Below are positions 1 through 62,900 of a stretch of DNA of 64,000 bases, piece after piece (the stretch's first letter is position 1; each line of letters begins with the position of its first letter). The position numbers and the translations under genes were made by a program. The stretch spans positions 1 to 64,000 of the forward strand of contig MEDY01000181.1 in NCBI GenBank assembly GCA_001724265.1, in the 5' to 3' direction. The notes under the pieces were generated by a model. It made no database searches. It saw nothing but the letters and a program-made list of their open reading frames with translations, and had not been told where the DNA came from. The stretch comes from Rhizaria sp. SCN 62-66 (lineage: Eukaryota).

Positions 1-2274
1 CTCGGAGGCCACGACCTTGCGACCGAACGCGGCCCGCACGCCCAGCGTGGCAGTCATCTGCGGCGCTGACGGGGCAGCGGCGGTGGTGTGCGCCGTGAGC
101 AACTGTGCCTGAGCCTGCGGCTGCGACGCGGTCGCGCTGAGTGCGCGCAGCGGGGCCAGCACCGCGGGCTCCAGCGCGCTCTCAACTGCGCGCGCGAGGG
201 CGCGCATGGTCGTGTAGACGGGCGCCTGCGCGGCCTCGGGCAGCGCGTGCAGCGGTAGCCGGAAGCCGTCGAGCGCGCGCAGCAGCAGGGCGATCTGCTG
301 CGTCACTTCCTCTGCGTACGTCTCGGCCGCGGCCGCGCCCGCGAGCTGCGCCGTCGCGTCCTCGTACGCCGCGCGCGCGCGCTGCGCCGCGTGGCTCAAC
401 CCGAAGGCGCGCGCCACCAGCGACTCGGCCGCCATCGTCGCCGCCGCCGCAGACGCGTCCGCATCCGCGCGCTGGGCCGCTGCGGAGGCGCTGGCGGCGG
501 CCGTGACGACCGAGGCCGCGTCTGCGGCGGCAACGGCCTCGCTCGTCGCGGTCGCCGCAGCCGCAGTGGCCGCCGCAGCCACGACGGCGGCTTCGCGCGC
601 CGCCGCGGTCATCGCCGCGGTCGCGGCGGGCGCGCGCGCAAACAGCGCCCGGTACGCGCGCAGAGCCGTCAGCGGCGTCGCAGACAGCGCAACTAAAGCG
701 GATAAACGGGCCGTTGACGGAGCTGCAAACGCTGCCGCTGCCGATAACGCCGCGGCCGATGCCGCTGATCGTGGCGCTTCGTTTGCGCCATTGTTGTCAT
801 TTCCATCAGAGTCAGTCATGCGTTGACAGCCAGAAAAGTCTGCGTTACCGCTGCGGTTGCTGCTGCTGTCGCCACTACTGTTGACTACCATGCTGTGGAA
901 GGCGTCCTCCGCGGCGAGCGCGGCAGCCGCGGCGCCGTGTCCCTGCGGCGGGCGCGCGTGGGCCCAGTCGACGCGCGGCGCGCCCACGCGCCACTGCGCG
1001 GTGACTGTGGCCACGGCGGTCGCGATGCGGTCCACGGCGCGCGCCGCCTCGGCCGGGTCGCGGAGCCCGAGGCGGGCGCGCGCATCCTGGAAGATGTCCC
1101 ACAGCCACTGCACGGCAGGGTCCGTGAAGACCTCCGGGGGCAGCCGCAGCGAGGCGCCGCCGTCCCAGTCCGCGGCGCCGTCCAGCGTGGGCGCCGTCAC
1201 GGCTGCTGCTTCTGTCGCCGCCGCAGTCAGAGAAGCTGGCGCAGTTGGCAAAATCGTTGCGACTGGGGAGACAGCAGCTACGTATACAGCGGAAGCAAGA
1301 GCATCAGCATGAGTCGATGTGTTGGCAGGGGGCGTGGTCGGAGCGGAGGCAAAGGAGTCAGAGGCAGCGGATGTGTCAAAGGCAGCGACAACATGCGCAG
1401 GTACAGCGGCTACGGACGGGGCAGCGGAGGCGGCAGCGCTTTGGTATGGGGGCGCGTCCGCGTCTGCAGCCGCCGGCGAGGCAGGACGGCTGTTCTCAAG
1501 AGGCCCGTAAGGTAGCTCTGTGGGCTGTGGCAGATGTGGCAGCTGTGAGTGCTCGTCTTTGCGCTGGCTTTCGCGCGGAGGCTTTTGGGCAGGCAACTGC
1601 TGCCGGTTCGAGGGCTGGTCCGGGAAGGGGAGCGAGTTCAACGAGAGCAGCAGGGACGCCAAGGCGGACAAAGGTGCATGCGCGGACGTCTCGGGGGCGA
1701 CCATCACTGTGTTACTTGGCGATGGCTACGACAACAACAACGACGACGACGATGATGGCGGCGGCGGCCGCCGCTAGTGCTGCGGGGAGTAAGGCAGAGA
1801 CTGGACCAACGAGGGGTCGCCGGAGGCCACGGGGCTGGCCGCGGGAAACATGCGCGCGGGCGGGCCGTTCAAGGCAGGCGTGGCGCCGACCGGGGAGGGT
1901 TGTTTCGTAGAGCGTAACGCGGCAGTGGACAGCTAAGCTGAAGTGCGCAACACACCTATGCGAGATTAGATGAGGTCTATAATATGTGCGAGAAGAATAT
2001 AGTAGAAATGAGTCAAATCGATTGCGTATGGCAGTACATTTGGTGTCGCAAGTCCTTCTTGTGTGCTGTAGCGCGACAATGAATGCGTGTGCTGACGCGA
2101 CGGCAATCTGGCCTTCAGTGTGAAATCAGCAGGCACTGGGAAACATGATTAACAAAGGTTTAGCAAGGCTTTAAATTGTCATCGTTAATTATATACCATG
2201 TAAGTGCAGATATCTTGCTGATAGCCTTATTGACGATTCATATAACGTATGTGACCTAAAATTCTAAGCGCCAT
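1..2274 (-). CDS. Hypothetical Ala/Ser/Pro-rich protein, 3' end runs off the window; two in-frame TAG codons near the N-terminus
   Basis: The minus frame is open from 1932 to the window start apart from TAG at 1776-1774 (SPQH*RRPP) and 1728-1726 (SLLS*PSPS). Phase-consistent tentative exons are 2274-2256, 2135-2038 and 1932-<1 (intron 2037-1933 is GTACTG...TTAG). The start is uncertain; an ATG near 1704, downstream of both TAGs, is an alternative. Confidence 0.55.
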
Positions 2275-2601
2275 CGGGCGTTAAGCGGACACCTTCGCCG
2301 ACAGAGGCTGAGTAGAGTAGTTAAGTTTTTCGATCATTAGCGCGTGAGAGTATTAGATTCAGGGTAATTCGTATGCGTAATCAGCTTGAGGATATTTGTT
2401 AATTACTTTAGCGTTTCTTCTTCGGTTCATTCTGAATGTTGTTTAGGTCTATTTCTCTATTTTGTGATGCACACGCGTGAAGGAGATTCATCGGAATGAA
2501 CCGTTCTCATATTGGCTCTTTTCTGTTGTTTTCTGTTTGTAATCAGAGTCGGCACACCTTTTGTTATAGAATACGCACACAACGTACTTGTTGACGTTAT
2601 C

Positions 2602-5136
2602 ATGAGTACGGTCAGCGAGCTTCTGTCGGGGGAAATCCGCCAGAAATTGACAACGACGAGTTCGTTCTCCCACCTCTTCGGCGTCTCCGACTTCTCAGAC
2701 GTCATTGTTGTTGCAGGCGAGGGCATTGATGGGTGCACTCCTCTCCGCATGCCGGCGCACATGTCCGTGTTGACCTCCATGTCCGGGCTTTTCCGCCGCG
2801 CGCTCGACGGCGGCTCCACGACCTCGACTGGCGAGGGCACCGAGCTGCTGCCCCCGGCGGCCGAGTCTGTCATCGCGCGGCTCTACGCCACTGTGCAGGC
2901 GCACGCGCAGACGCACCTCCACGACGACGAGCACGGCTACAGTGCTGTCTCCGCTCCCGCCGCCGCCGCCGCCGCTAAGGCTGCTTCTGCTGGCGCCAAG
3001 GCCGTCGCCACAGGCGCCTCGGGCGCCGACGCCGCTGCCGCTGCCGCTGCCGCCGCCGCCGCCGTCGCTGCCGCAACTGCCGCCGCGGCGACTGCGCGCG
3101 CGAACGCAGACATGCTGACCAAGTCCGCGCGGCTGGAGCTGCTGTTCGAGACGGGCGTGCCGGTGGATGCCTCGCAGGCGGGGCTCTGGGACCTGGACCT
3201 GCTGCTCGACGCCGGTCACGCGCGCGCCGCTGCGGAAGCTGCCGCGGCCGCCGAGAGCGCGGCTGCCGAGCTCCTCGACCGCGGCGCCTTTATCTCCGCT
3301 GCCGTTGCCGCCGCCAATGCCAAGGCCGCCGCTGACGCCGCGCAAAGCCAGGGCCAGACCCAGGGCAGTTTGGCGACGCCGTCCATCCACGCGTACGAGA
3401 CGTCACCGGGACTGTCCGAGGCGGACCTGGAGGCCGCGCGTGCCGCCGTCGCCGCCGCAGGCTCGCGCGCGTACAAGCGTGCCGCGGGCGCCGCTGTGCT
3501 GGCCGCCGTCGCGGCGCTCTCGCCCGCGGCCGTGCTCGCGGTCACCGCGGAGCCCCGGCGCGCCCACGGTCACCCCGCCGCGCCGTGGGCCAAGACGCAC
3601 GCGACGATGCGGCTGCCGCAGCTGCCACCGGCCGTGTTGCCGCTGCTGCTGGCGTGCTTTTACTGCAGCCCGCTGTCGACGTACGGGCCCGACGGCGCGG
3701 CGGCCGCCGCCTCGGGCCGCGCGGCTGCCGCGCTCGAGGAGGCCACACTGACAGCCGCGCTGCTGCTGCCGCTGCTGCGCACGCTCGACGCGCCGCTCAT
3801 CACCGTCGCCGCGCGCGGCCCGCTGCTCTCGGCGCTGTCGCTGCAGACGCTGCCGCTGTACCTCGCGGCGGCCCCGTTCCTGCCCGCGCTGACGGCGCCC
3901 GTGCTGGCATTCGCGCGCGCGCACGCCGAGGCGCTGCTGGGCTCGGCCGCCGTGGAGCGTCTCCCGCCGCGCCTGCTGCGCGCGCTGCTCGAGGATGACC
4001 ATCTCGCGGCTCCCGAGCTCGCCTGCCTCAAGGCGCTGCTGCGCTGGGCCGGCGCGCAGCAGGTCCGCGCCACCATCGCGGCTACTGAGCAGTCGCCGCA
4101 GCAGAACAGCGCGGTGGTCTCTGTGGCGGGGCGGCTGCGCGTGGACGTGTCGCCCGCGGGGCTGGCGCCGCACTTGGCCGCGCTGCTGCCGCTGGTGCGC
4201 TTTGCCGCGCTGGCGCCCGCGGACGTGGCGCAGACGCGGCTGGGCGGTGTCCTCAGCCCCGCCGCGCTCGCTCTCCTCTTCCAGCACCTCGCCTGCGGAG
4301 CCAGTCTTACCAGCGCCAACGCCAGCACCGGCAGCAACACCAGTAGCGTCATCAGCAGCAGCAACAGCAGCAGTGGTGCGAACGGCAGCAGCAGCAGCAG
4401 CGCTGGGAACAGAGCCGGGCGGGGCGGCGCACGGTCTGCACCCGAGCCCTCGCTGGCGGACCGCATGACCGCGGCGGACCACCCGGCCGTGGCGCGCGCC
4501 GTGGCGGCCGCGCTGGCCGCGGACCCGCTGTTCGCGCAGCCCGCCGTGGCCCGCGCGGAGCCCGTCTCTGCACTCGCGCGCGCGCGCCACTTCGCCGCCG
4601 CGGACCCGGGGCTCGCGGTCGCCGCGGCCGCGGGGCCCGCGCTGCCGGTGTCCGCCGCCGCTACCACCGTCGAGACCGGGGCTGCGCACGACCACTCGTC
4701 GTCGTTGTTGTCGTCATTGTCATCCTCGTCGCTGTCGCCGCTGTCGTCGCAGCGCCAAATGCAGTCTTCTGCCTCTGTCGTGGCCGCGCAGTGCGTGGTG
4801 ACACCGGTGCCGATGCCGGCGTCGGCGCTGGCGTCGCTCCTCTACGGCCATCCGCGGCTGCCGCGCGCGCCGCCGGCGCTGAGCGCGGCGCCCGCTGCGG
4901 CCGCGCTGCGCGGGCTCGACGGCTGGGTGCTCGAGACGCGCGCGCGCCTCGTCGCCGCGCTGCCGCCCGCCGCCGCTGCCCAGAGCGCGTTTGCGCCCGC
5001 GCGCGACGCGTTTGCAGACGCCTGGACCGCATTCTCCTCGCAGCAGCAGGAGCAACAACAGGAACACGCACAAGCCCAACCACAGCTGCAGCAGCAGTAC
5101 CAGCAGCATTAGCAGCAGCAGCAGCAAGCGCAGCAT

Positions 5137-5173
<37 letters not shown>

Positions 5174-8100
5174 CCAGCAGCGGCTGGCGCTCTGCCGCAG
5201 GCGCGCGCGGGCGGCTGAGCGCGCCGGGTTGGGGCTGGGACCGCGCGCGCACATCGCACAACGTGCGGCTGGGCGCGGGCGGGCGTGAGGCGTTGGTGTG
5301 GCCCGTGATCCGCGAGAACCAGGCGCAGCACCTGCTGCTGCACCACACGCTGCCGCGGCTCGCGCTCGACTGGTACCCCTACCTCGCGCTGTGCGACTCG
5401 CCCGTGGCGGCCGAAGTCCGCGCCGCCGTGGGGCCCGTCGCGCCGCGCGACGCCGCCGAGATCTCGGCCTACGGCATCCAGTCCACGGCGCCCGCGCGGG
5501 CGGCAACCGCGCGCGCGTCGCCGGGCGAGTGGCTGCAGTGGGAGCAGAGCATTGTGCCCTACGAGCAGCGCATGCTGTGCGGGGTCGAGAAGGCGCGCCC
5601 GCCTCTGGCCGTCACGGCGCACCTCTTCGCCATGGCCTCGCTCGCGCATCTCGTCGGCACGCTGCCCACGGGGACTGCGGCCGAGACCGGGCTGCGGTGC
5701 TGGCGCGTGACGCGGCGCGCGCGCGAGGCGCTGCAGCCGCTGTCACAGTGGTGCGCGCACGTGGGCGTGGCCAACGCGTCCTGGGCGCCGCTGCGCCTCG
5801 GCGCGTGGCGCTTCGCGGGCATGATGAAAGCGCACCTGGACGCGCCCCACAGCGTGCGCGCGCGCATCAACGCCGCCGTGCTCAACCTCGCCGTCGAGGA
5901 CATCCCCGCGCTGCGGGCCGCTATTGCGTAGCGCCGCGCCGCCGACGCCGAGGCCGACGCCGCGATGACTGCGGCGGGGCTCCACGCCTTCCAGCGGCCG
6001 CAGCGCCCGCGGCTCGTGTGGGGCGCGATCGCGACGCAGGCGGCCGAGCTGGGCCACGGGTCCACGCACGTTCTCGCCGAGGCCAAGATGGACTACCTCG
6101 TCGAGGCGCTGGAGCGCGCGTGCGACCACTTGGAGCAGAAGGGCGCATACTCGCGGATTTTCACGCTGTCGGCGCGCTCGCTCACGCGCGCGGAGTAGTC
6201 CGAGATGCTGGGCGTGGCCGAGACCGAGGCCGTGCCGCCGATCGAGGCGCGCACGGCCCTCTTCGGGTTCGCCGGTAACCTCCTCGCCAACGCCGGCGAA
6301 GCCGACGCCGCCGCGGGCGTAGAGGCGATCGCCGCCGCCGCGGGCGCCGCGCACGCCGCGCTGGTCGCGCAGGCCGATCAGGACGCGCGCAACAACGACA
6401 ACGGGGGCGACTCGCAGGACGAGGACGCGGGGGCGGACGCCGAGGCCGAGGCCGAGGCCGAGGCGGCGGCGGGCGCGGCGGGCGTGAACCTGGAGCCAGC
6501 GGGCGCGGCCAGCGCGGCGGTGCGCGCCACGGCGCGGCTGCTGCATCTGACGGCGCAGCAGGCCGTGTCCGTGCACGCCGCGCTCAGCCGCGCCGCCATG
6601 GCCGCCGCTAACAGCAATAACAATAACAATAATAACAATAACAACAACAACAATGCTAACGCGAGGAATCCCGGCCGCCCGCCGCTGACGCCAGCGCAGC
6701 GCGAGGAGCGCCGGGCGCGGCGCCGCGCCGCGCGCCAGAGCAGGATGCGCCCGGACCGGCAGAGCAATCGGCAGTCGCGACTCGAACAGCAGAGCCAGGA
6801 GTACAGCACATCCAGCTCCAGCGGCAGCGAAGTTGACGACGACGACGACAGCGAAGACGAAGCGGAGGCCGCCATTTGCGCCACAACGGCGGTGATGGCC
6901 GCGCGCGCGGCGGACGACAGGAGGCCCGTGGCCACCGCGCTGGCCGCCACCACCGAGGGCTCACTGGCCCGCGCGCGCGCGCTGGCCGCGCTGCAGTGCG
7001 TGCTGCTGCAGTGCCTTGAGCTCGACGTGCACGCCGCGCGCTTCAACGCGGCCCTGGTCGACGAGCTGTTCCGCTGCGTGGCCGCGCTGGAGCGCTGCGG
7101 CGTGCCCGCGGCGCCGCTGTTCGCGCCGCCCGAGGCGCTTCGCGCGCCGCCCGCGGCGGCCGTGACGCTGCTGCACGACCCGCGGCGCGGCGAGCTGCAC
7201 GCCGCCGTGGCCGCGCCCGTGCTGCCGCTATTCGCGCTGCCGCTGATGCGCGTGCTGCAGACCGCGTACCCGCGCCTCGCGTCCTACTCGGCCTCGGCGG
7301 GCGCCGCGCTCGCGCTTATGGACTCGCTCTTTGCATTCGAGGCGCTGCCCGCCGACGCGCTGCCGCGCGCGCAGCACGACGAGGCGCGCCGCCGCGGGCT
7401 GCTGCTCCGCGCACGCGCGCTGCGCACCGCGGCGGGTAAGGCCAACCGCGCGGCCTTCGGCACCTCGCTTGCGCCCTACGCAGGCTTGGGGCTCGCGCTC
7501 GACCCCGCGTTCAGCGCGGTCGCGGCCGCCGAGGCCGGGCTGACGCTACCGCTGGCGCCCGAGGTCGCGGCCGCGCTGCCCGCCGCAGTGCTGCAAGCCG
7601 TCGTGGCGCTGCCCTGCACCGGCACCAGCACCGCCGGCACCGGCGACTCCGGCGGCGCGCCCGCGACGCTGGCCGCGCGCGCGGGGCAGATCGCCGACGC
7701 GCTGCGGTTTGTTTGGGTGCGCGTGCGGCGCGGTGCGGCGCTGGCAACGCTGCGGCTGCCCGAGCGCGCGCTGCCGCTCAAGGCGCTGGACCGCGTGCTG
7801 GGCGCGGCCGCGGACCGCGCCAAGGCCGCCGTGTGGTTCCGCGCACTCGAGGACGCGTACGTCGACGCGATCGTGCACGGTTACGCGTGGCGCGCGCACC
7901 GCGTGTGGGCGCTTGTGCCGCCCGGCGTGCGGCGCGCGGTCGAGCTGGTGACGGCGGCCTACGAGCGCCATGGCGCGCCGCGCGACCGCTTCGTTCCGTT
8001 CGTCGCACACACCGTCAACGAGCGCGACGACGATATCGATGTCGAGACCAGCTACAGCATCGCAGACGTGCCTGTCACCGCGTTCGACGGGTGGGACTGC

Positions 8101-8196
8101 CTCGGGCTCGGCGTCGGCTTTGCATCGGCGGACGCGGCGGCCAATGTGGCTAATTACGCGGCAGCTGATGCGTTTGAGAGCAAGTCGCAGCGCTGA
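2602..8196 (+). CDS. BTB/POZ + BACK domain protein, about 1864 aa when three internal TAG codons are read as sense
   Basis: BTB-like motifs (FSDVIVVAG...PAHMSVLTSMSGLFRRAL; LPQLPPAVLPLLLACFYC) and BACK-like motifs (LPPRLLRALLEDDHLAAPELACLKALLRWA...LLPLVRFAAL). ORFs 2512-5112, 5263-5931, 5965-6198 and 6205-8196 share one frame and are separated only by TAG at 5110, 5929 and 6196. Ends in TGA followed by an AT-rich 3' region. Confidence 0.75.
5041..5172 (+). repeat. Coding (CAG)n poly-glutamine tract containing one TAG codon
   Basis: Reads CAG CAG CAT TAG CAG CAG CAG CAG CAA GCG CAG CAT CAC CAG CAG... at 5101-5172. Confidence 0.9.
6616..6654 (+). repeat. Coding (AAC/AAT)n poly-asparagine tract
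   Basis: Run of AAT/AAC codons inside the BTB/BACK gene. Confidence 0.85.
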
Positions 8197-10357: not shown

Positions 10358-12451
10358 ATGGAGCTTGTGCTCAACGCCTTCCGCTTTAAGTCGACAGGTC
10401 CGTTCTTCCCCCAAACTCCGCTCTCTGGTATTGCTTTGCCTTGTCAGCACTTTTTCACGTTGTATCATTTATTGCTATACACACCAACTTGCTGAAATTG
10501 CTCGCACGCACAGACTACCAGCGTACAATCGACTTCTATCAGGGTGTCCTGAAGATGCCGATTGTACGCCAGCTCGACTCCTCCGCCAAGGTCCGCCTCA
10601 CCTTCCAGTTTCCCCATGACACCGTCGGGCTGCGCTTCTAGTTTGAACGCACTGCCGCAGCTGCCGCAGCTACGAGCGCAGGCTCGGACGCGGGGTTTGA
10701 GACGCTGCCGTCGCTGCCGACCGCGCCGCGCGACTCAGTGTCGCTTCTGCTCTATGTGGCCGCGATGGACCCCGTCGTGGCCCGCGCGCGCGCGATGGGC
10801 TTCGTCGTCTACGTCCCACCAGCGAAGCTCAACCATCTTGTTACATCGTACGTTTTTGCACGCGCTCACGTTGCCTCGCTCTATATACTTCGATGACTTC
10901 TTGCCACACTGATTGAACCGCTCTACCTTGTCAGTCACACTGTTTTAGCTCCCGTTCATCTTACGCGCGCATTACCCCCTCTCTCTTGAACTTGTTTCCC
11001 GATATCTTTAGCGCTGTGGTGCTCGACCCGAACGGACTGCGCGTGCGCCTCATGCAGGTCGATAACCAGCCCATTCTCCCGCCCATCACAACCGCGAGCG
11101 CGACCGCAGGCGGCGCTGATGCCGACTCCCCCAACCCCGGTCACGGGCACAGCCATAGCCGCAGCAGCGGCAGCGCGGTCGCTGGCGATGGCGGCGACGG
11201 CGATGGCGGCTCGCGCGCGCGGGGCCCCACGGCGCGGCTGGGCTACGTGTCGGTGCCCGTGGCGAGCGCGCGGCGCTTCGGCCAGGTCGCGGCCTTCTAC
11301 GACGCACTCGCCCTGCCCGCGCACGCGCGCCCCTCGGCCTCGGCCGCGGCGGCGGCGGCCGGGGGCGCGGGCGCGGCGCTGCCCTTCTCCGCGCTGCCGC
11401 TCACGACGGCCGGCGGCGCGGGCTCCGCTGCGGGCGCGACCTCCAGCATGAGTGCCGGTTCGAGTGCCGGCAGCAGCAGCAGCAGCGTTGGCCGCGCGTC
11501 GCGGCACCTGCGCGAAGTCGATGCGGAGCACGTTGCGGACGCGCTGACCGCCTTCTTGTGGCTTGGCAACGGGCCCCGCGCGCGCCGCCCCGCGCTCTGC
11601 CTCGTCCACAAGGCCACACGATCGGGCACCGGCGCCGCCACCACAGCGCTCTCGTCCGCGGCGGCGGCGTCGACGCCCGCAGCAGCAGCTTTGGGCGACG
11701 GCGAGTCCGGCGCGGGCGCGGGCGCGGGCGGCGAAGACAGCGAGTCTAGCGCGGTGACGGTGGCCGCCGTGTCGCACCCAGTTTTCCTGGGCGTGTCGTG
11801 CCTCGTGCACTCTATCACGGCCGCCGCCGCGCAGCTGCGTACAGTCGAGGGGCTTGCCGGTGCGCGGCTCGAGCCCGCCGCCGCCGCGCACGGGCTGCCG
11901 CGCTGTGTCTCCTTTATTGACCCCGTACGTGACGCCGCTTGCGCTGCTTGTCTTGCTACACTACGATCATTGCCTGACTTGTTTGTTGGTGTTGATTGTG
12001 ATATGTTATCCCGTTTATTGAATGTGTGTTTTATGTAATGCAACTGGCTGTGATATTATTTGTGTATTTCCTGTGTTGTTTTTAAATATCATGTTTGCCT
12101 TTTTATGTCATACTTGTTTTCTTACCCTTATTGTACTTCCTTTAATTACCCACTAAGGCTTCCGTTGCGGTCGAAGTCACCGATGGCGTGCCGTACACGC
12201 CAGCTGCATCAGCGTCCTCTGCCACCGCGGTTGCAGTCGGCGCCGGCTCTTCCTCCGACACAGCGGCTCTGCTTGCCTCTGTTTACGGCCAGAGCATTCA
12301 CGGTCAGAGTCACGGCCACGGTCACGGGACTCCGCGGGGCAGCGCGCCGTCACAGGCGCAGCCACAGCAGCAGCCACAGCAGGCACAGTCGCTTTCATCG
12401 CTGGTGCGATTCGGTCCGACGCCGGAGCCATGGCAGGGCCGCCACGGGTGA
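10358..12451 (+). CDS. Glyoxalase/bleomycin-resistance (VOC) superfamily protein with two VOC-like domains; exons 10358-10397, 10514-10847, 11012-11924, 12158-12451; one internal TAG
   Basis: Spliced translation gives TDYQRTIDFYQGVLKMP...VGLRF*FER...SLLLYVAAMDPVVARARAMGF...AVVLDPNGLRVRL, then a second unit RLGYVSVPV...VAAFY...SFIDP|ASVAVEV. TAG at 10639-10641; stop TGA. Confidence 0.75.
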
Positions 12452-15418: not shown

Positions 15419-16218
15419 GAACGTGTGCTGTGTTGAGCTGACTGGGAGAGCTGTTTTGAATGCGGCGCTGCGCTGAGAGAGCGAGGGGCGCGCAAGGGCG
15501 GAACAAAAGTGAGGGACTAAGGCGCGGGGGGGAAAAGCAAAGACGCGAACGGTCTGTGTGAAGTCAGAGAGATGAGGCAGAAGCGATGCCGGCAGCGAAT
15601 GAGCAAGAGTGGTCAAGTGGGAAAAGGGGAGGGGGAAGCGCGCGGGCGCCGAGGATAGGGCGTTTCAAGGAGCAGCGTGTGAGAATCCAGCATAGGAGAT
15701 ATTCGGAGCAAAGATTACGAACGGCTTGTGCGGCCTGGACGGGAAAAAAAAGTGCTAAGGAGGCCTTTCATAACGTCTCGTCGAGCGACGCGTCAACGGC
15801 CATCCATTGACGTTAAAGGCGTCTAGCGCACGTCATCAAGCCGAAGAGCATGTACTATAAAAGGAAAAAGTATAACTCAAGCGTAGCTCAGTCTGAATGA
15901 CCGCTTGTGTACGATTAACGGTCGTTTCCCCCTTTTGCTGTGAGTTTAACTGACTTTTCTGAGTCATCAGACTGGGTGAACGATAGTGATCTTGTGGCTG
16001 TGTTGAAAACACGTTATTAACCGTGCATATCGTCACTTCGGCGCGCGTATGCGATGCTATTTGATATAGATTCTAATCCAAATATATTGTTTTCTTATTC
16101 CACACCAGGCTTCACTTGATATTGTGTCGAACAGGTCTTTTTTGCGCCACTCGGCAGTCTTGCTCCTTCTCGACCCAAACACCGTACCGTCCGGCCCCCG
16201 CGCGGGGAGCTCTGTCCG

Positions 16219-48811: not shown

Positions 48812-51800
48812 TTACTTGGCGCGCGTGCTGGCCCTCGTGGCACGCGTCGCGCGCGCGGGCTGCTCAACCTCGTGCGAGTCAACAGCGGCCGTCTGCTCAG
48901 TCGCCTTGGCCACGCGTGCGCGCGTCGCACGCCCCGTCGTCGCCGCACTAACGGGCTCAGACTCGGCCGCAGCGGCGTCTAGCTCACCCGACGAGCGCTT
49001 GCGGCGCGAGGTCTTGGCGGCGGGCGTCGGCGCAACGGCGGGAGTGGCGTTCTCGCTCTCGTTCTCGGTGTCGGCGTCAGCCGCGGCAGCAGCGGCGGCG
49101 GCCTTCTTGGTGCCGGCGCGAGCAGGCTTCTTGGGGACTGCAGGCAGCGCGGCGGCGGCGGCCAGCGAGGCGTGCTGACCGACAGCGCCATCGTCCTCGA
49201 TGCCAAACGCGTTGACACCGCCGCGGAGCGCGTCTTGCACGTTTTGCGGCAGCAGCGAGAGTTCGTCGCTGTTATCATGGGCCTGGAGACAGTCCGTCAG
49301 ACGGCGTGGGTTGCGCTGCTTGGCCGTGACGGCGGCCACGGCGCCCTTGGCGGCCGCGGCGTCCTCGAGCGCGCCGCGCAGACGCACCTCAGCGGACATA
49401 GCCTGCTCCTTGGCGCGCTCGAGCTCAATGCGGAGCTGAGATGCCTCAGCATCGAGAATCTCGCAGTCGCGGCGCAGTGCAGCGCCGTGGGCCTCGGAGT
49501 CCTTGAGACGCTTGAGCAGCTGCGCGCGCTCGATCTCGCCGCGGATCCCGCCCAGGGGCCCGTCGTCGTCGCCCGCAATTGCTGCCGCGGCCGCCTGCGC
49601 CTGCGCCTCCTGCAACTGAACCTCGAGCTTCGCGTTGGCCGCGCGCGCTTCGCTCACCTGCTGCTTCAGCTCGATGACCTCCTGTTCCTTGCTCCGCAGA
49701 TCCGAGTTGAACTTGTGCGCTAGGTGCTCCAACTGCGCCGCGTGCGCCGCTGTGGTGCTCACCAGTCGCTCCTCGAGATCTTGCGCGGCGCGCGCACTCG
49801 CAGCACGCGCGTCCTCAGCCTCCTCGCGCGCGGTCTCGGCGGCGGCGACGACGGCCTTGCGCTCGGCCTCAACGCCCGCGAGTCGGACTTCGACCTCCGC
49901 GCGCGCCTGCGCGATGGCGCGGTCCTGCTCGTTGCGCGCGGTCTTAAGCGCGGTCGCCAGCACGGCGTCGGCGGTGTCCTTGGCCGCGCGCACAAGCGCA
50001 GTCGTGGCGTCGTCGTGCGACGCCAGCAGCTTCTCCTGGTGTGCGACGAGGCGGCGCTGCATGCGCGCCTCGGCCTCAAGCAGCTGGGCCTCGAGACGCT
50101 TCTCATGGCGCTCCTTCTGGCGGCGCATCTCGCCGCGCATCTCCTCCCACACTTGCGCGCGCGTGGCCTCCTCGACGCGCACTTCGCGCTCGGCCGCCAA
50201 AACGCGCTCGCGGCGCAAGGTGTACACCTCGCCCAGCAGCGCCTCGCCGCGGCGCTCGGCGGCCGCCAGCAGCGCGTGCACGTTGGACAGGGCCTTGTTA
50301 AGAGCGTCGCGCTCGCCCGCCGCGACGGAGAGCTGTTCTGTCAGCGAGGCAGTCGCGGCGGCGACTTCCTCGGCGACCTCGAAGTCGCCGGCGCCGAGCC
50401 GCGACACGGCGGGCTTGCGCGCGCCAGTGCCAGGACGCTTGGTGTCGACGCGCGACGCAACGCGGATCTCGCGCGCGACGGAGGCGTACTTAAGCGTATG
50501 AAGCGTCTCGTCGTATTCGGTCGGCGACGGGTTGACGTTGCAGATCATGGCCATGGAGCCATGGCCAGTGAGCACGTCACGGAACAGAAACGTGAGCTTC
50601 GAGTCACGGAACGGCACGACGCGCTGCGGCTGCTTCGGGTTGAGCTGGTTAAAGCGCACGGCCTCCAGGCAGCGGCCGAGCTGCATGAGCGAGGCGTTGA
50701 TCTTGTTGGTCTCGTTCTGGCGCATGCCACCGGCGGCGGCGCCTGTCTTGCTCGAACGCTCAGCGCCGGCGAGGTCGCACACGGAGAGTTTGGCCCACGT
50801 CGCGCCCTTGCCGTTGGTGAGCGTGACGGTGAAGACGGAGTGCGAGCGCGAGGACTCAGCATTGAGCTGCGTGTGTGCCATGACACGGTTGGACGAGCCA
50901 CGCTCGATGACTGAGAGCGCATCCTTGAGAGTGGCGACGCGCATCTGCGACAGACCGCGGACGCGGATCTCGTCCGTTGACGTCGCCACAACGGAGATTG
51001 GCTGGCGCTGCTTCGGGTCAGCGCGGCCGTCGAGCAGCAAGTCGAAGAGCTTCTCCTGGTAGATCTCGAGGTAGCTCGCATCTACGGTCAAATCAGCTGC
51101 TGCGCTGGCCCAAGAGTCCTCGCCGGCGCTGGCGCTCGAGGCGGCAAGTGTGCGCGCGCGGTCGATGCGCGCAAAGACCTCCTTGAGCAGGTGGATCACG
51201 ATACCAGGGTTTTCGGGCGTGCCCTGCATGGTGAAGGTCTTGCCGGAGTTGGTGACACCGTAGGCGAAGATGAGGCCGTTGGTGCCGGTGAAGAGCTTGT
51301 TCACGAGCGGAAGCGTGGTCACGCGGAACACTTCCTCCTGCTGCGCGTCGGGGCCAAGGACCTTGGAGAAGGCAAATGTGCCGTGTGCCTCACCGTTCTT
51401 GTACGACTGCGACGTCTCAGGGGCTGCGAGTTCGACGGAGTTGTCGCTGACGGGCTGCACTGTGGGCATTACGTCCTTGAGCTTGCGCACGCGCTCCTCA
51501 TGCGCCGCACGCAGACGCCGGCGGTGGTCTATCTCCTTCTCGTCGAGTCCGTCAACGATCTCAATGTCGCGCGGGGCGATGATCAGCGGGCGCACGCGCA
51601 GGTAGACCTGGACAGTCTCGCCCGACACAGCTGCCGCGCCAGCGGGGCGGGCCTTGGCCGGGTTAGTCTTCTGGGGCGTCACGCAGCCGTCCTCGGCCTT
51701 GGCTTCATCAATCGTGTCGTCAAAGTCGTCATCGTCGTTCTGATCAATGACTTTGGAGTCATACGGGGAGCCGGGCGCGGAGGAGCCCGCGGAGTCAGAC

Positions 51801-51850
51801 GAGTGCCTGCCCGCAAGGGACCCACTCTTCATCATCGGGGGTCTCTTCAT
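48812..51850 (-). CDS. Kinesin-6 family motor (KIF20/KIF23-like), 1012 aa
   Basis: VYLRVRP, P-loop IFAYGVTNSGKTFTMQG, NAESSRSHSVF, DLAGAER, INASLMQLGRCL...NQ...VPFRDSKLTFLF, then a long coiled coil; stop TAA. Confidence 0.9.
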   Translation of the reverse strand: MKRPPMMKSGSLAGRHSSDSAGSSAPGSPYDSKVIDQNDDDDFDDTIDEAKAEDGCVTPQKTNPAKARPAGAAAVSGETVQVYLRVRPLIIAPRDIEIVDGLDEKEIDHRRRLRAAHEERVRKLKDVMPTVQPVSDNSVELAAPETSQSYKNGEAHGTFAFSKVLGPDAQQEEVFRVTTLPLVNKLFTGTNGLIFAYGVTNSGKTFTMQGTPENPGIVIHLLKEVFARIDRARTLAASSASAGEDSWASAAADLTVDASYLEIYQEKLFDLLLDGRADPKQRQPISVVATSTDEIRVRGLSQMRVATLKDALSVIERGSSNRVMAHTQLNAESSRSHSVFTVTLTNGKGATWAKLSVCDLAGAERSSKTGAAAGGMRQNETNKINASLMQLGRCLEAVRFNQLNPKQPQRVVPFRDSKLTFLFRDVLTGHGSMAMICNVNPSPTEYDETLHTLKYASVAREIRVASRVDTKRPGTGARKPAVSRLGAGDFEVAEEVAAATASLTEQLSVAAGERDALNKALSNVHALLAAAERRGEALLGEVYTLRRERVLAAEREVRVEEATRAQVWEEMRGEMRRQKERHEKRLEAQLLEAEARMQRRLVAHQEKLLASHDDATTALVRAAKDTADAVLATALKTARNEQDRAIAQARAEVEVRLAGVEAERKAVVAAAETAREEAEDARAASARAAQDLEERLVSTTAAHAAQLEHLAHKFNSDLRSKEQEVIELKQQVSEARAANAKLEVQLQEAQAQAAAAAIAGDDDGPLGGIRGEIERAQLLKRLKDSEAHGAALRRDCEILDAEASQLRIELERAKEQAMSAEVRLRGALEDAAAAKGAVAAVTAKQRNPRRLTDCLQAHDNSDELSLLPQNVQDALRGGVNAFGIEDDGAVGQHASLAAAAALPAVPKKPARAGTKKAAAAAAAADADTENESENATPAVAPTPAAKTSRRKRSSGELDAAAAESEPVSAATTGRATRARVAKATEQTAAVDSHEVEQPARATRATRASTRAK

Positions 51851-52434
51851 GGTGAAAGAAAGTCACAGGTTATCAGGATGTGAATGATTTGCAAGTATTT
51901 TCAATACAACTTTAAATATATATTCACAAGAAACATTTCAATTTCACGATCATCCACGGCGTTATTCACAGTTTTAATCTGTGCCACTTTTCTAGCCGTT
52001 GGACGGTTGCCCTACCAACGTATCTCGACCGCAGCTACTGGGCGCAACTGTTTTTGTTATCGAATTGAGAGGGACAATCTTTATATTTGAATATTTTAGT
52101 TCGCGAATGATTTAAAGAAAAATGATATGTATACGTATGAACAGAAAAGTGCGAATACACTTTTAACAAAGAAACTATGAAAACAGAGGTTGCATTTTGT
52201 ACAGTTTTGTGTTGAATCTCTTTTTTGTTGTTGGTGTTGTTGGTTAGCAACCACCACGCAGGCACATGCACACGAGCAGCCAGGCAAATGCACTCCGCCA
52301 TCAGTCGTCTGATCGTCGCGCTTTCTCATATTCTTGTTGCTGCTGGGGCCAAGGCACACTATATGTTTTGATGAGTAACCACGGAGGGGAGTTGGCATTA
52401 TAGCGTCTCGTTTCTTTACATGAAGGCTGCAATT

Positions 52435-53241
52435 TTACTTGGCAGCGTCGTCCTTGCCGAGAAGGGCGTCGATGTGCGACTTGAGCACCGACAGGTCCTC
52501 ATCATCAACAAGTTTGAACTCCTGCACGAAATAGATGAAGTGCTTGAAGCACGTGTTGAGGTGCGCCTCGGCGCCCAGCTCGACGATCGAGTTGAAGTGC
52601 GACGAGTACACGTGAGCGTAGATGCGGAACAGGCGCTTGAAGATGGTCTTGACGCGCATGAGGAAGTCCTTGGGGAAGGGCGTGCCGACCTGGAGGGGAA
52701 AGATCTGCTCGTCGTTGAGCTGGGTCTCAACCCACGTCATGAGCAGGTCCACGTACTCGGGCGCGGAAACCTTCTCCGGCTTCTTGTACTTGACGCCATC
52801 CATCCAGTAGTACTCGTAGCCCTCGGCGGACATCACGGGGCACGACTGCGCGGTGCAGAACTCGGTCACGGTGCCGTACAGGAGCGAGATCTCGTTGAAG
52901 AAGTCGACGGCTGTAAAAGTAGCGGAAACAAGTGTCAGAGTATAGCGTGAGTTGTTGCGTGCACATGAGTTGGTGAAGTTCGAGGGAATCAAGACCGTCG
53001 CCACGGTAATCAATGCATCTGGGTGGTATATGAAAGGCGTGTAGTTGTTTGAGCGAGAGACGTACTGTTGACGGCGAGCCACTCGTTGAGATCCTCGTTA
53101 GGGGGCAGGATGACGGCGGCGCGCATGTCGCCGCTGCCGAGCGTGGCGTTGGCGTACTCAGTCTTGGCATACTGAGACAGCTCGGACTTGCGCTTGTCCG
53201 TGTGCGTTTTGGGGGCCTTGAGGGTCTTGTTCCGGTTGCCA
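52435..53241 (-). CDS. MOB1: MOB kinase activator (MOB1-like); exons 53241-53066 and 52910-52435 plus an unresolved short first exon (candidate ATG near 53405)
   Basis: ATLGSGDMRAAVILPPNEDLNEWLAVN|TVDFFNEISLLYGTVTEFCT...CPVMSA...KTIFKRLFRIYAHVYSSHF...EAHLNTCFKHF; intron GTACGT...TACAG; stop TAA. Confidence 0.93.
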
Positions 53242-55892: not shown

Positions 55893-56903
55893 AGCGAATG
55901 TATGGGCGAAACCAACTGGGCAAACGAACGAGCGAATGGGATGTTAGATGTTATGTTCAAAGTGTTTCATCACTGCATGAGGCCAGTTTGCTCTTTGATG
56001 CGAACAAATGCTACGCGAAGACTGGGTATCCGAATGCTGGCTGTTTTTCGCGGGAATTCGATTTCTAACTAAAATGTCAGTTCTTGCGACGCAGTTTTGG
56101 TGCTAGCTGTGGAGTAGTAATGGAATACAATCCTGTTTCCTCCTGGAATCTGATGATACAAAACCGATGTTGTGAACACAGATAATGCGTGAGTTATCGA
56201 ATTATGATATCAATGCCAGAACTCTTTGCTTAGTGGTTCTCAAAAATACACGCACGACAGGCAGGCAGCCCATCGTCGTGTTGCACATGCGCTTTCAGGC
56301 CATTTTTTCTCGCGCTTATTATGTCACCCTGAGTCGTCATTTAGGTTCCGGAATTATTCGGTGATACACTATGGCACTGCTATTATGGAAATCAAATGAG
56401 TACACTTTAGTATCCCTTCTAAACGCCTGCGGCTGGTTGAGGGAAAGTGGTGCTCCTTCGAATCACCTCCTGCTTTCAAGCACCAACCCATTTGGACTTG
56501 TCATGCTGTACTACGACATAGGAAGAATGTTTCTGTGCACGGATTGGCTATATCCAGGGGATTTATTTTGATTCGCATTGGTTGCTTTTCTTCAATCTGC
56601 TTGCATATCCCGTAATATCTTTTTTTCCCCCACGCACATCGAGTAACCACAAATTCAATTCTGCTCCTTTGTTTGCTCCCGTTCCCTTCCTCCATGTCAG
56701 CATTTGGGCTTGGCCGTAGATCCCAAACGTATACCAGCGTTGATTTGCAGCTCACAAACGAGCGACTCGGCGTAACAAGCTTAGCGCATCTTTCCCGTGC
56801 AGTCACACCGCAGAGGGCGTCGACGCTGTGTTTGGCGTTCGGCTCTGCTCGCTTTTGCTTCGGCATCGTCCTCCACTCCCCGTTGCCACGCGTTGGCCCA
56901 CGG

Positions 56904-59900
56904 ATGAGGCATGTGTTCTCACTGCGCACATGGCCCGCGCTTTTGCTGTTGCTGCTCGCTACACTGGCGACTTTGCTGACTCCTGTAACATCAGTGTTCT
57001 CGATAACTTTGAACGCAGGTGCAGCAGCCCGCGCGGGCACTGCAGTCGACGTGGCGTTCAAGCTGGACACCACCCTTGCAGGCGGCGTATACGAGGGCGA
57101 CCTATTTCTTAAGTCGATGAATGACGATCCTATCTTTGTTCAAGGTACTTTACGCCACTGTCGCAGTGAAACTGTAAACGCCAGCGTTGGCATCGCCGCC
57201 ACAGCATACGCCGCCGCTATTAACGCAAACACCTTTTCGTTCAACACCACTAATGCCATGACAAACCTTGTCGTCCGTTGCCGCATTACGCTATCCTTTC
57301 TTTATGCTAACTCCACAAACGTCGCTGTGCTCGCGGAGCGCGTGAACGGCGTAAGCCAGGGCAATTCCACAACAAATTTATTTCTCGTCGGCTCGCCTGC
57401 GATTGTTTTCCCCGACGGCGCCTTCCTGTGGTACAACGACGCGTGGATTAACCAGGGCACACGCTTCAACATGCGTTTTTCTTTCACGGGCTCGCTGCGC
57501 TCTGCGATCACTGAGCTGGGCGCGATGAGGATTAACTTGCAGATTGAGGCCGGTACAACACACACCTTTGCGGCCATTATGTCATGCACGCTCGACATGG
57601 GTGCGACCAACGGTGGCGTCATTCAGCTTGCGGCGCCCACACTCTCCGGGGCGAACACGATTGCCAACTTCGCCATGCCCGCGCTTCAGGAAGACACGCA
57701 CGACGGCCAGGCAATCACGCTCAACTGCCTCGCGCCGTGGCGCTCCGACACAGAAACTAGCGTGGTTGCGTCCTTCATCATCAACCCTTCGCTCTACTTT
57801 GGCGTTTACCAGTTTACTGCATCTTCGCAGCCAACCATGCTCCCTATGTTCGCAAACACAGACTCATTTTCCGCCTTGTTTGCGATTGCCGAGACGGCCC
57901 CCACGTGGAACTCCGTCGACCAGGTACGTTTCCGCTCTAGTGTCCTATCAAAACGTCTTGAATCCAGACACTTCCAGCGTGTCGACGAGTCAACTGTGTT
58001 TATCCAACCCTTACATACGAGCTTTCAATTGCTCGCGTGCCATGACGTGTGCTTACTAATTCTCATATTCATATTTTCCTCATACTTTCATAATTTTTCT
58101 CTTCTGATTCGTACTACGCCAGGGCTTGCGCGGCAGCTCCGGCACCATCAAGCTGGGCCTTAGTCGGAGCTCCGACGGTGCCTTCTACCGCGGTGGCACT
58201 GGTGCGTACTGCACCGTGGGCATCAAGGGCGTGACCCACGAGCTGTATGCTGATGCCTCGGTCGCCGTCGTGCCGCCGCTCCAGCCCTCGGCGCTGCTTA
58301 AGGACGGCTACTGCACGTTCCCCATCAGCTCGCTTATCGTGCATGGCGGCGCGAGCTTTGCGGCCGACGACGCGCAGCTCGTCTTTGGCCTTTACTTTCC
58401 CACGGCGCCGGCCGCGCTAAAGGCCTCGGGATACGTGTCCTCAGACGGCTGGTTACAGCGCGCGTACTCGATCGACCGTCCGTTCACGACGAAACCGCTC
58501 CCCAGGAGCACCAGTCTCGCCGCAGTGACGGCCTTCACGCCCAAGGGCATGTACGTGCCGCAGCGCAGCTTCCTGTTTGACGGCAACACGACTCTGGCCG
58601 CGTACGACTACTTTGCGTTCCCGCGCGAGCTGCCGTCGTTGCCCGACAAAGCGCGTCCGCACCCGCGGCCGGCGCCGCGCCGCCTGCACGCCGTGGCGGC
58701 GTCGCCCGCTAGTTCGCCGCGGTCCACGACGCTCAAGGCGTCCATGAGCGGCCAGCTCTCGTTCTGGTTCGGCGGCATCCGGCAGCTCACGCCCTCGTCA
58801 TCGCCCTCGCACGTCGCGAACCTACTCAACGACCTGTGGGTATTTGACGCGCTGGCCAACACCACCACGCTGCTTGCAGGCGACCCGTCGAGCGTGAATA
58901 TGGGCGCGCGTGTGTACGCGTCCATGACCTACAATCCCTACAACGTCCCAGCGGCGCGGCACTCGGCGGCGTTGGCCTACGACTCTGTACAGCGCATGCT
59001 CTGGCTCTACGGCGGCGCTAAGCACGAGCTCATCAACTCGGCGGCGAGCGTGTACACGCTTTTCGACGACTTGTGGTCGTTCGACCTCTTACGCGGCCAG
59101 TGGGCCTGGCACTCGGGCAATTACGATGGCGTAACACGGCCAGGGTTTGCACAGGCATTCTCGGCTCGACCTCTTCCACTGGCCGGTGTCGCCATGGCTG
59201 CGCACAACGGTTGGCTACTTCTCTACGGTGGCTTAGGCTGCGCGTCGAAGTCGCAAAACGACACCAAGTACAACGCATTAGTCGAGGCAGAGCATCTTTT
59301 CTCCTACGAGACTGGGACGGGCAATTGGACGCGACTGCAGGGTTCGACAAACACATTCGACAACACGCTGCCGACACGCGGCAATTCAGTTCACCCTGCG
59401 GCGCGTGCGTACGGACAGCTGCTATGGCGCAACGACGCCGCAGCTAGCTAGGGCCAGTTGTATTTATATGGCGGCGTGCTGTCTCCGCCGCCGATCGGCG
59501 CCATGACGACGGGCATGATCACCGCGGCCACCACGCGCGCGTCCGCAACGCTCCCTGAAACGGACTCATCCGTGTTGTCAGGGCTATGGTCGCTTACGGT
59601 GACCTTTGCCAACAGCACCGCAACGTGGTCGCGCCTTGATCAGGCGCCCTTGATCGTCACCGCTGGTTCACGCGGAGAGCCGCGTATTGTGGACGCGTCC
59701 GCCGGACTTCAGCTTAACCCTGGTGGCCGTGTGTTTCACGCCATGAACGTTGCGAGCAATGGCGACCTGTTCCTCTACGGCGGCCGCGGCCACGCAGCCG
59801 GATATTGGGTGGATCCCGAATCCGCGTTGGCACCAACCGTCCCTCTGGGCGCTTTGCCACGACCGTCACCCTTCACGATTCCGCTCAGCGGTTTCTACAC

Positions 59901-62900
59901 CAGTCCCGGAGACTCGGCTGCAGTGACGTACCACGCGTTTATCTACACTTACGCCGAGCTCAGCGCCGCCGGCGTGCCCACGAGCCTCAACCTCGCCACA
60001 CTCGAGTTTATGTTTGCGCTCCACCATTCGGCGGACATTTCACTTGCAGGAACCTTTGACGCCTCGTCGTCTTTTAAGGTTCGGATGCTGGCGGTGACCA
60101 CGACGCTTTCGACCTTCGATAGCTCTGACTCGACCGTTTTCAGCAATCTGGCCGCGCGCGTGTCGCAGCAGCCCGCCGTGACGGTGTACCCCAGCACGTG
60201 GCTCCAAGGAACGTTTATGTCGCTCACCGCGCCCTACGCCCGCGCCAGCTCGGGCGCTACGGGGGAGGCGCCGCTGCTGTCGAGCTCTAACATGCTCATT
60301 GTGATGCGGATTGATCACACCATGGTGGGGACCCCGGCGGCCTCTTCAACGCCCTTGTACGGGCTCGCATTACGAGAGGGCACTCTTCTCCGCTCGATGT
60401 CCATCGTAGCTGATGCCGTCACGACCTTAACCAGCCCCTACAACACGTTTGAGAAGTACACAGCGCGGCCTGTGCTCGGCCTACGCTCACCGCTGCCCTC
60501 GCACCCCTTCACCGCCCCACCAGCGTCGCTGTCGCAGGCTGCCAGCCCGCAGCTCGACGACCTGTGGCGCTTCGCGCGCGAGTCCGGCACCTGGCAGTTG
60601 CTGCGTGGCTACATGACGCCCGTGTCGCGCAACAGCGCAGCATAGCAGCGCGTGACGTCGCAGACAACGGCGTCGCACTGGCCCGGCGCGCGCCTGGGCG
60701 CGACGCTGTTGCTGCCGACCACCGACGTCGGCGGCGCTGTCAGCACTGACCGGACTGTGTTTGTGCACGGCGGCTACGCCGTGCACCCGCTGCCGAGTGA
60801 GGACGCGCGTTTGCTGGCGAGCCCCGCGCTGCAGCTGCACGCGGGATTTTACGCTCGTGCGTCGGCGCACGACGACCTGTGGTCCATCGACGTCGCAGCG
60901 AACTGTATCGACTCGGCCGCGCCCGGCGCCAATGAATGCGTGAGCCGCTCGCCGCTGCGTCCGTCTTTGAGCTCGCTGATGCCCGCCGGCGGCGAGGGCG
61001 TGTCACTCGCATACGATGAGGTCACGCTCGTGGCGCTTTCCGAGTCGCGCGGCAACACGTGTCCCGACGACTCGGCCGCGACGTGCGGCGCGGGCGGCGA
61101 GTGCATGCCCGCGGGCGGCTCGTACTACTGTAACTGCCACGCCTTTGCGTTTGGCTCGCGCTGCAACACCTCGCTTGAGGTTGAGCTGCGCACGCGGTTT
61201 GAGGCCAGTTATGGCACCGTGTTCGGCTCCATTATTGCCCCGAACTCATGGCCCTTCACTTCAGTCGCGCTGCGTCCGGGTACGGCCCAGCTGTGGTCGT
61301 ACGGCGGCATGATGAGCACTTCAGGGGCGGCGACTGGCTACGCCATGGCCTCACACGCAGTCCTCGATCTGGCGCTGCGTACGATGAATGCGATGGGTCG
61401 CCCCACGGAGTTGATCGCATCGCACAATTTTTCGCAGGCCTTGGTCCCCAACGCGCCAGCTATCGACGGGAAGACGTACTACAGCGCGTCGTGGCCTCCG
61501 CCGTCGATCGAGTCGCACTCGTGGTTTACGCCTGACGGGCTCTACATGTTCCTGTACGCTGAGAGCTTCACCGCGCCGCCGGGACTATGGCGGTTTAATG
61601 TGACCAACTTTTCATGGACCACGACAGGCTTCGACCACCTCTCGTTCTCCGGCCGATACCCTGCCGGCACAGATAATTACACTTCCTCCGTCCCGATGCC
61701 GGGTGTTGCGGACGTGATGAACCACCCCGGTGCGCGCCAAGGCTTTGCGCGCGCGTCGTACACGCCGGTGGGTGCGACCGAGACAGACACGCGCTTCTGC
61801 ATCTACTCGGGCCACCAGTTTTACTTCACCAGCCGCGGCGACGACTTCAACACGGATCTCTGGTGTCTCTACACCTCTGGCACCACCGACCCCAAGTGGC
61901 GGCAGATGTCGGGCATGGCTGCCCAGACCGCGGCCGACTATTTCCCCGTGATGGGCGACCCGGGCGAGTTTGGTGCCAGCTTCAATCCCGGCTGCCGTGT
62001 TGGCGCCGCGATGACCTTTTCGCGCGACGGCCGCTTCCTATATCTCTTCGGCGGCTCGATGCATGGCCCGTCGGGAACGACGCAGTTTCCGAAGCCGGCG
62101 CTCATGAACGATCTCTGGGTATTTTCGTTTGCAAATAACCAGTGGGCCTACCTCACCGGTTCCCGAACATGGGCCACCGCTGGCTCAGCGTCAGCGCAGA
62201 ACATCATGCTTGTTCCTGGCGCGGCCTCGCGTCTGCAGCGCCCCGGCGCGCGCGTGCATGCGAGTATGACCACCGACGACCAAGGGCTCGTGTACGTGGC
62301 CTACGGGCTGATGGTGTCGGCCAATTCGGGTCCCGGTGACGGCATGGACAGCGCGATTTTTGCTGTGTTTGGTGAGCAGCTGTTTAACTCAAGCTGGGTC
62401 GCGCCCACCGACGCGGCCTTTGCACCCGCGTCGCATACTGTCGGCTACGAGCACGCTCCGTGGATATGGATGAAGAATCCCAACACTGGTGCCGCCGCGC
62501 CAGAGGGGCTCGTTTGGAGCGCGACCCCGGAGACGGGCCGCATCGGCGCGACGCTGTTTTTCGGCCCCAACGCGATGAACACCGATGCGACGGCCAAGAC
62601 CACCCCCACGGGGACGTTGATGCGCACCGCGGGTGGCTACTACCACTCGGGCAAGACACGCACATATGGCGGCACGACAGGCTTCCCCTACTTTGATTTC
62701 TCCCACGTTGGTTCGGCGCACGCGTTGCCTTCCGTTGTCGCCGTCACTTCGCCCTGCGCGCGCAACCCGTGCTTGAACGGCGGCGTGTGCTCCAACTGCG
62801 CGACGGCTACGTGCGCCGCGGAAGACTCCCGTTTGTTCCCCGGCGTAGGCCCGCTGTCGTACCGCTGCCTCTGCCCCGCCGGCTGGTTCGGCCAGCACTG

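Follow-up and report, generated by a model that had tools for sequence, protein, structure and literature searches.

In-frame UAG as a probable sense codon in a GC-rich, uncultured protist

The window considered here, that is, the whole 64,000-nucleotide (nt) stretch of DNA that was analyzed (contig MEDY01000181.1 of assembly GCA_001724265.1, positions 1 to 64,000), contains five genes with in-frame TAG codons. These TAGs lie within coding sequence that is uninterrupted and stable in frame, conserved parts of the proteins carry on beyond them, and no gene of the window is closed by TAG. The favored reading of this pattern, which is probably correct, is that UAG is translated as an amino acid and that termination takes place at UAA and UGA only.

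Genes of the window and their in-frame TAG codons

The window has a GC content of 64%, with coding stretches at 70-76% GC separated by spacers at 50-55% GC. Its long open frames encode typical eukaryotic proteins, such as a kinesin, eIF2B, a RING finger protein, a CDK-like kinase and kelch repeats, together with Mob1, a Sar1/Arf GTPase, a v-SNARE, RNase T2, a cystatin and a glyoxalase-fold protein. The source is an uncultured, GC-rich, single-celled eukaryote with few introns, and the stretch is present in sequencing runs from bioreactors, wastewater and activated sludge, issued from six studies between 2015 and 2025. Spliceosomal introns are few; the verified ones are 142-178 nt long and AT-rich (34-47% GC, for exons at 65-77% GC), and share a uniform signature, with GTACG at the 5' site and YAG at the 3' site after a T-rich tract. 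The TAG-bearing genes comprise gene A, gene B, and the genes for a glyoxalase-fold protein, a pseudouridine synthase and a kelch-repeat protein (Table 1).

Table 1. Positions of the TAG-bearing genes, their in-frame TAGs and associated features. Coding scores are given for the upstream/downstream flanks.
Feature	Position	Strand	Score	Remarks
Gene A	1..1965	-		Alanine-rich protein, no Pfam family; 3' end beyond the window
TAG in gene A	1774..1776	-	0.36/-0.05	Coding if the start is ATG 1851, otherwise 5' leader
TAG in gene A	1726..1728	-	0.08/0.28	Surrounded by repeated TCG/TTG (Ser/Leu) codons; start codon doubtful as for 1776
Gene B	2500..8196	+		BTB/BACK-like protein; 1898-codon open frame, likely ATG 2602, closed by TGA 8194
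TAG in gene B	5110..5112	+	0.31/0.24	In a CAG/CAA polyglutamine tract (..QQYQQH-TAG-QQQQQ..)
TAG in gene B	5929..5931	+	0.62/0.43	Weakly aligned to a Glu of P0122
TAG in gene B	6196..6198	+	0.73/0.75	Within a 5-residue insertion relative to homologues
Glyoxalase/VOC-domain gene	10390..12038	+		At least 2 exons, closed by TAA 12036; TAG in the first exon ORF
TAG in glyoxalase domain	10639..10641	+	0.52/0.42	..VGLRF-TAG-FERT..
RluA-type pseudouridine synthase gene	16120..19939	+		Closed by TGA 19937
Intron of pseudouridine synthase gene	17040-17181	+		142 nt, GTACG...TAG, AT-rich
TAG in pseudouridine synthase gene	17408..17410	+	0.35/0.25	76 codons into exon 2
TAG in pseudouridine synthase gene	18074..18076	+	0.37/0.09
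Intron with signature	28501-	+
Intron with signature	33252-33429	+
Kinesin gene	48812..51862	-		Conserved, TAG-free, closed by TAA; query for finding relatives
Intron with signature	52911-53065	-
Kelch/EGF-like secreted protein gene	56616..64000	+		Large; runs off the window
TAG in kelch gene	59449..59451	+	0.30/0.20	Three residues ahead of the kelch LYLYGG strand
TAG in kelch gene	60643..60645	+	0.34/0.36
End of fragments P0121 and P0127	5929
End of fragment P0123	6196			7 contigs; JGI, Logan, ENA
End of fragment P0126	59449
End of fragments P0125 and P0128	60643			P0125, Logan and ENA; P0128, JGI

The original prediction counted ten in-frame TAGs in five genes, and all ten are present in long stop-to-stop open reading frames (ORFs) that close at TAA or TGA. 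A codon-usage score trained on four TAG-free genes of the window was applied to both flanks of each TAG, in all three frames. For eight of the ten (all except 1776 and 1728), both flanks score above zero in the ORF frame and below zero in the other two. The two TAGs of gene A score clearly on one flank each; they fall between the first ATG (1851) and a later one (about 1704) and may be coding or part of a 5' leader. Six more TAGs occur in the same open frames (1935, 24667, 53586, 53790, 53835, and 58161). These were set aside for want of a coding signal, being leader sequence or part of another frame, and the original prediction was right to omit them.

The claim that the TAG-bearing genes are free of frameshifts also stands, as the ORF frame is the best one in every sliding window of the four long genes (gene B, 46/46; kelch gene, 48/48; pseudouridine synthase gene, 21/21; gene A, 15/15). 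UAG is rare in frame, with about 8-10 occurrences in about 13,900 coding codons (about 0.7 per 1000). The TAG-bearing genes, 5 of about 20, are fast-evolving and rich in low complexity.

Continuity across a TAG is seen with homologues or Pfam families at three sites (5929, 6196, and 10639). For gene B, the residues 3' of the polyglutamine tract were submitted to a full HMMER scan of 1.84 billion representatives, which returned four proteins: two correspond to fragments of the window itself, and the other two are homologues encoded by different organisms. One of the latter, P0122, is a single 1048-residue protein. It aligns to residues 3-230 of the gene B query, before TAG 5929, has in common with gene B a short motif (D-HL-Q-G-WSR) between TAGs 5929 and 6196, and is 47% identical to residues 823-970, the last 150 or so, far downstream of TAG 6196. 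Viral contigs scanned with a gene B alignment gave no match (0/12), and an ESM Atlas search with its C-terminus gave no usable lead (best score 0.81). In the glyoxalase gene, PF00903 covers residues 38-137 of the ORF at 10390-10893 (23.2 bits, for a cut-off of 20.6), and TAG 10639 corresponds to residue 84, inside the domain. A homologue search with this exon found no hit among 356 candidates, and a sequence search of PDB found chance matches to designed repeat proteins only.

In the two other long genes, the TAGs are flanked by recognizable domains. The catalytic domain PF00849 of the pseudouridine synthase has its N-terminal half in the ORF at 16120-17100 and its C-terminal end at 18620-18745; TAGs 17408 and 18074 sit in the long insertion that separates the two halves. 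In the kelch gene, an ORF starting at 56616 with a signal-peptide exon is probably joined, via an intron beginning with GTACG at 57924, to the open frame 58108-64000. Kelch families are matched before the two TAGs (residues 448 and 846), at residues 279-415, and after them, at 1297-1347 and 1927-1961. A homologue search with the region covering both TAGs returned only the window's own two fragments.

Terminators and controls

As claimed in the original prediction, all locatable gene ends are TAA or TGA. Among the 14 well-supported ends, nine are TAA, five are TGA and none is TAG, and three doubtful ends are likewise TAA or TGA (TAG, 0/17). Several of these ends are corroborated by the proteins themselves: the domains of Mob1, Sar1, eIF2B, the RING protein and the cystatin are complete at their TAA or TGA ends. 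Past the TAA and TGA ends, the sequence is noncoding, with several stops of all kinds within 80 codons. The in-frame TAGs also differ from real stops in the base that follows the codon, which is C for 6/10 TAGs and for 0/14 stops (Fisher p = 0.0016). TAA is the commonest terminator, although GC at third codon positions (GC3) is about 0.8 in these genes.

ORF extension past TAG was compared with 16 GC-rich (at least 55% GC) eukaryotic metagenome loci that came with the kinesin search. Under the standard code, four ORFs of the window that reach 300 codons or more end at TAG. Three of them run on to the next TAA or TGA, for 1027 codons after TAG 5110, at least 1516 after 59449, and at least 1118 after 60643; the fourth (56616-58163) is no gene end, but an exon running into another frame. 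In the control loci, none of the 14 TAG-closed ORFs extends past 277 codons, the maximum observed. TAG closes 14 of the 57 long control ORFs (25%), and the absence of TAG from the 14 well-supported ends of the window differs from this share with p of about 0.02, for a small sample. Control loci L033 (9860-12895), L050, L058, and L025 are kinesin-bearing, GC-rich contigs that use TAG as an ordinary terminator. Another control, based on GC per codon position, was dropped in favor of ORF extension, because it is nonspecific and also flags antisense frames.

Weighing the translation of UAG

An assembly or consensus error, conceivable in a single metagenomic contig with many low-complexity repeats, can be given next to no credit. 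Contigs of run X3, from another study, show no difference over TAGs 5929, 6196, 17408, and 18074, the last two lying in identical contigs (15672-17503 and 17533-18564, respectively), and those of run X6 show none over 5929 and 6196. No piece among the contigs listed bridges TAGs 1728, 1776, 5110, and 10639, and the compared stretch did not include 59449 and 60643; read-contig depth figures were disregarded, being inflated by low-complexity repeats of other organisms. In addition, others have predicted protein fragments from JGI, ENA, and Logan contigs, whose ends coincide exactly with TAGs 5929, 6196, 59449, and 60643 (Table 1), and the JGI fragment P0128 begins three codons past TAG 59449. 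Consensus error at the TAG sites, which the original prediction had itself named as a threat, is largely refuted by these fragments and by the X3 and X6 contigs, which keep the TAG. Removal or change of the TAGs before translation, through RNA editing or through splicing of short GC-rich introns that end in TAG and keep the frame, is highly improbable. The genome does have introns, and a GTACG located 75 nt upstream of TAG 10639 delimits a 78-nt in-frame unit (GTACG...TTCTAG, 10564-10641). This is the sole candidate intron that would keep the frame, but it codes for strands of the Pfam-matched glyoxalase domain; the other candidate intervals around the TAGs break the frame or are too short. 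Moreover, the TAG surroundings are coding-scored and have 64-77% GC, in contrast with the longer, AT-rich verified introns and their T-tracts. At the RNA level, the alignment of a contig of the polyA-RNA run X5 (6025-6443) continues through TAG 6196 with no gap; no listed RNA piece reaches the other TAG sites. The eight pieces listed for this run all map to genes, whereas a DNA-like run from that study extends to spacers as well. Editing could be suspected from one difference in this contig, whose position is not displayed; nevertheless, all four T>C differences of run X5 are accounted for away from TAG 6196.

The gene ends also bear on the idea that UAG is still generally a stop, leaky or context-dependent, and read through by a near-cognate or suppressor transfer RNA (tRNA), as in an ambiguous stop/sense code. 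Were TAG a working terminator, about one quarter of the ends would be expected to carry it, and none of the 14 does; gene B would also require three successive read-throughs to reach its most conserved C-terminal domain. This explanation is, thus, unlikely, even though it would account for the very low frequency of in-frame UAG, for the absence of TAG from conserved genes, and for the C found after six of the ten TAGs, C being the leakiest +4 context for eukaryotic termination. Likewise, the use of TAG at gene ends that marks ambiguous codes of the Condylostoma or Blastocrithidia type was not found at the 14 (or 17) ends, a sample too small to count against rare use. It is very unlikely that the five genes are pseudogenes or nonsense alleles, in which TAG would prevail as the commonest stop to arise by mutation of GC3-rich codons. 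By calculation, TAG would indeed result from about 66% of random nonsense substitutions here, TAGs 5110 and 1728 look one base away from the neighboring repeated codons (CAG and TCG/TTG, respectively), and the affected genes evolve fast. However, ten neutral nonsense hits imply about 400 substitutions, and with an assumed indel:substitution ratio of at least 0.05, at least 20 indels would be expected in the 5,450 codons concerned, in which there is no frameshift (probability below 1e-5). Neither TAA nor TGA occurs inside these frames, the conserved C-terminal domain beyond three TAGs is 47% identical to its homologue, identical TAGs recur in runs from several studies and years, and 5 of about 20 genes would be hit while all gene ends are also without TAG.

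The original prediction that UAG is a sense codon and that UAA and UGA are stops is, in this respect, supported by coding scores, homology, frame stability, gene ends and the ORF-extension control, and its description of the source as GC-rich and eukaryotic also holds. Several points weigh against it. The data base is 64 kb of one organism, and neither a tRNA nor an Rfam family was detected within the window; hence, no tRNA(CUA) was seen there, and eRF1 is not among the genes of the window either. The genes for kinesin, Mob1, Sar1, eIF2B, the kinase, the RING protein and the cystatin contain no TAG, and neither does an ORF of 3578 codons. No internal TAA or TGA is present, as had been stated, but this is partly so by construction, because the frames were bounded by those two codons. 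TAG exclusivity alone is also weaker evidence than had been claimed: all ten internal stops are TAG, but since most random nonsense hits would give TAG, p is only about 0.016 under the mutational null. No strongly conserved residue is hit by a TAG, and the sequence context gives conflicting hints to the amino acid, with polyglutamine at 5110 and a Ser/Leu run at 1728. To these points may be added the single difference in the X5 contig over TAG 6196, and the closest metagenomic relative by kinesin, locus L006, which is without internal TAG in four genes, all of them ending in TAA, and is uninformative on a clade-wide code. If UAG is translated, a tRNA with anticodon CUA would be charged with one amino acid, and eRF1 would no longer recognize UAG efficiently, by analogy with other UAG-only codes.

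Amino acid, known codes and neighboring features

Given that UAG is sense, the amino acid is most likely Gln, with about an even chance of being so, while Glu, Ser, and Leu are possible readings. The original proposal of Gln, thus, keeps its place as the favored one, the hints pointing to a polar residue, but as 'probably Gln' it was too firm, as no TAG occupies a strongly conserved position. One hint to Gln is the location of TAG 5110 within a CAG/CAA tract. TAG 59449 is at a kelch loop position where the other blades mostly have Asn, Asp, Gln or Glu, and TAG 5929 stands opposite Glu in P0122, in a weak alignment. TAG 10639, with a Phe on either side, belongs to a glyoxalase-fold strand from which its side chain would face the cavity.

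An ankyrin-repeat-like element occurs in two copies, at 13463-13611 and 29529-29677 (coding sense on the minus strand), with 79% identity over 149 nt, and a TAG in one copy corresponds to a CAG in the other. In both, 7 nt (GCCAACC) are duplicated in tandem, which shifts the ankyrin frame. The TAG/CAG pair was not counted for Gln because this shared duplication breaks the frame and the copies are possible relics. A dispersed gene may have left such relics, but a stranger explanation, for instance a programmed frameshift common to both copies, is also conceivable.

UAG-only nuclear codes are rare, as the original prediction had it and as PMC5304391 and PMC11687900 agree. The first two to be described are those of Iotanema spirale (Gln) and of the sainouroid rhizarian exLh (Leu); in both, the stops are UAA and UGA only, with UAA dominant (PMC5304391, on which the figures for these two organisms below also rest). 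In Iotanema, a member of Fornicata, UAG occurs in frame and never at gene ends, and the terminators are 104 UAA and 15 UGA, to be compared with 9 TAA and 5 TGA here; Gln is read there and favored here. However, UAG is frequent in Iotanema (204 in 126 genes) and rare in the present organism (8-10 in about 20 genes). Conserved positions have proven the amino acid in Iotanema, whereas here Gln is favored from hints. The present organism is also GC-rich and showed no fornicate affinity in the one kinesin search. The exLh code (Sainouroidea, Cercozoa) displays the same terminator pattern, with 56 UAA, 15 UGA, and no UAG; UAG is scarce in its highly expressed genes, and the closest named kinesin here is cercozoan. 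Nevertheless, UAG is abundant in exLh (384 in 71 genes), and Leu fits poorly here at the kelch loop position (59449) and at the cavity-facing strand position of the glyoxalase (10639).

Other UAG-only codes are those of phyllopharyngeans, Protocruzia tuzeti, Oligohymenophorea sp. PL0344, and the green alga Scotinosphaera (Ser) (PMC11687900). As in the present case, UAG is decoded apart from UAA in these organisms, and suppressor tRNA(CUA) genes are reported for several of them in that same paper. Unlike ciliates, the window combines canonical spliceosomal introns of 142-178 nt, 64% GC and a long multi-gene contig, features unlike those of ciliate macronuclear DNA. Codes in which UAA and UAG (UAR) both specify Gln are found in many ciliates, hexamitids, oxymonads, some ulvophytes, and Amoeboaphelidium. 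They resemble the present case in a stop-to-sense change involving UAG, probably to Gln. UAA is, however, not reassigned here, because nine of the 14 well-supported gene ends are TAA, with noncoding sequence beyond.

The three features of UAG-only codes that can be examined in the window are all found, namely in-frame UAG, its absence from gene ends, and termination by UAA and UGA. The organism is, thus, probably an added member of this known class, from whose described members it differs by a much rarer UAG and a high GC content. The original prediction went further in calling the reassignment independent and undescribed. Regarding the latter, a search of a limited literature collection found neither a description of this organism nor one of a UAG code in any GC-rich protist from wastewater. 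An independent origin may apply, but the kinesin relatives are scattered: the closest named one is that of the cercozoan Mataza sp. (46% identity), followed by Gefionella, Cyanophora, and oomycetes at about 41%. Kinship with the rhizarian that reads UAG as Leu is, therefore, possible. Genome contigs scanned with a kinesin alignment gave five distant matches among 106 stretches, and metagenomes gave 80 loci, of which L006, with 53% GC, is the closest (42% identity).

A more specific scenario, which is tentative and somewhat doubtful, is that a deep-branching lineage of uncultured, GC-rich protists, without a sequenced close relative, is at an early stage of capturing UAG, independently of the other cases. 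If so, UAG would be gone as a terminator while still being a rare sense codon (about 0.7 per 1000), and the organism would offer a natural snapshot of the loss and reuse of a stop codon. The preference for TAA stops at a GC3 of about 0.8 is the opposite of what GC pressure and simple codon capture predict. More generally, UAG is split from UAA in only a handful of known lineages, and each independent case puts to the test the idea that the two codons are coupled by a real constraint. The present one is useful in that it is GC-rich, not a ciliate, and shows a rare sense UAG resembling an early stage of reassignment. As the organism recurs in wastewater and bioreactor data sets of several studies, DNA, RNA and possibly metaproteome data already exist.

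The reading of UAG as sense also has consequences for databases, since standard-code gene callers fragment the genes at TAG and the annotation of this organism in metagenome resources is, thus, systematically broken. The protein fragments P0121, P0123, and P0125-P0128 derive from window positions 5296-5928, 5965-6195, 58126-59448, and 59452-60642. Public collections hold the corresponding genes as fragments only, because the callers used the standard code.

Among the remaining features of the window, the TAG-free open frame of 3578 codons (36440-47176, plus strand) has a strong coding signal and ends with TAA TAA; a Pfam comparison at E <= 0.01 gave no family. The spacers between genes are in some cases very short. 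For example, at 21535-21634 on the minus strand, the TAA of the gene at 21632-23962 is followed within about 100 nt by the in-frame start of the next gene on the same strand. An AT-rich stretch at about 12700-13050 has no Rfam or tRNA match, and shows many differences and a contig depth of 130-870 in runs X3 and X4, compared with about 5 in its flanks. It looks like a multi-copy or mobile element, or a sequence common to another abundant organism, and a 32-nt inserted variant is present at 12962 in runs X4 and X5.

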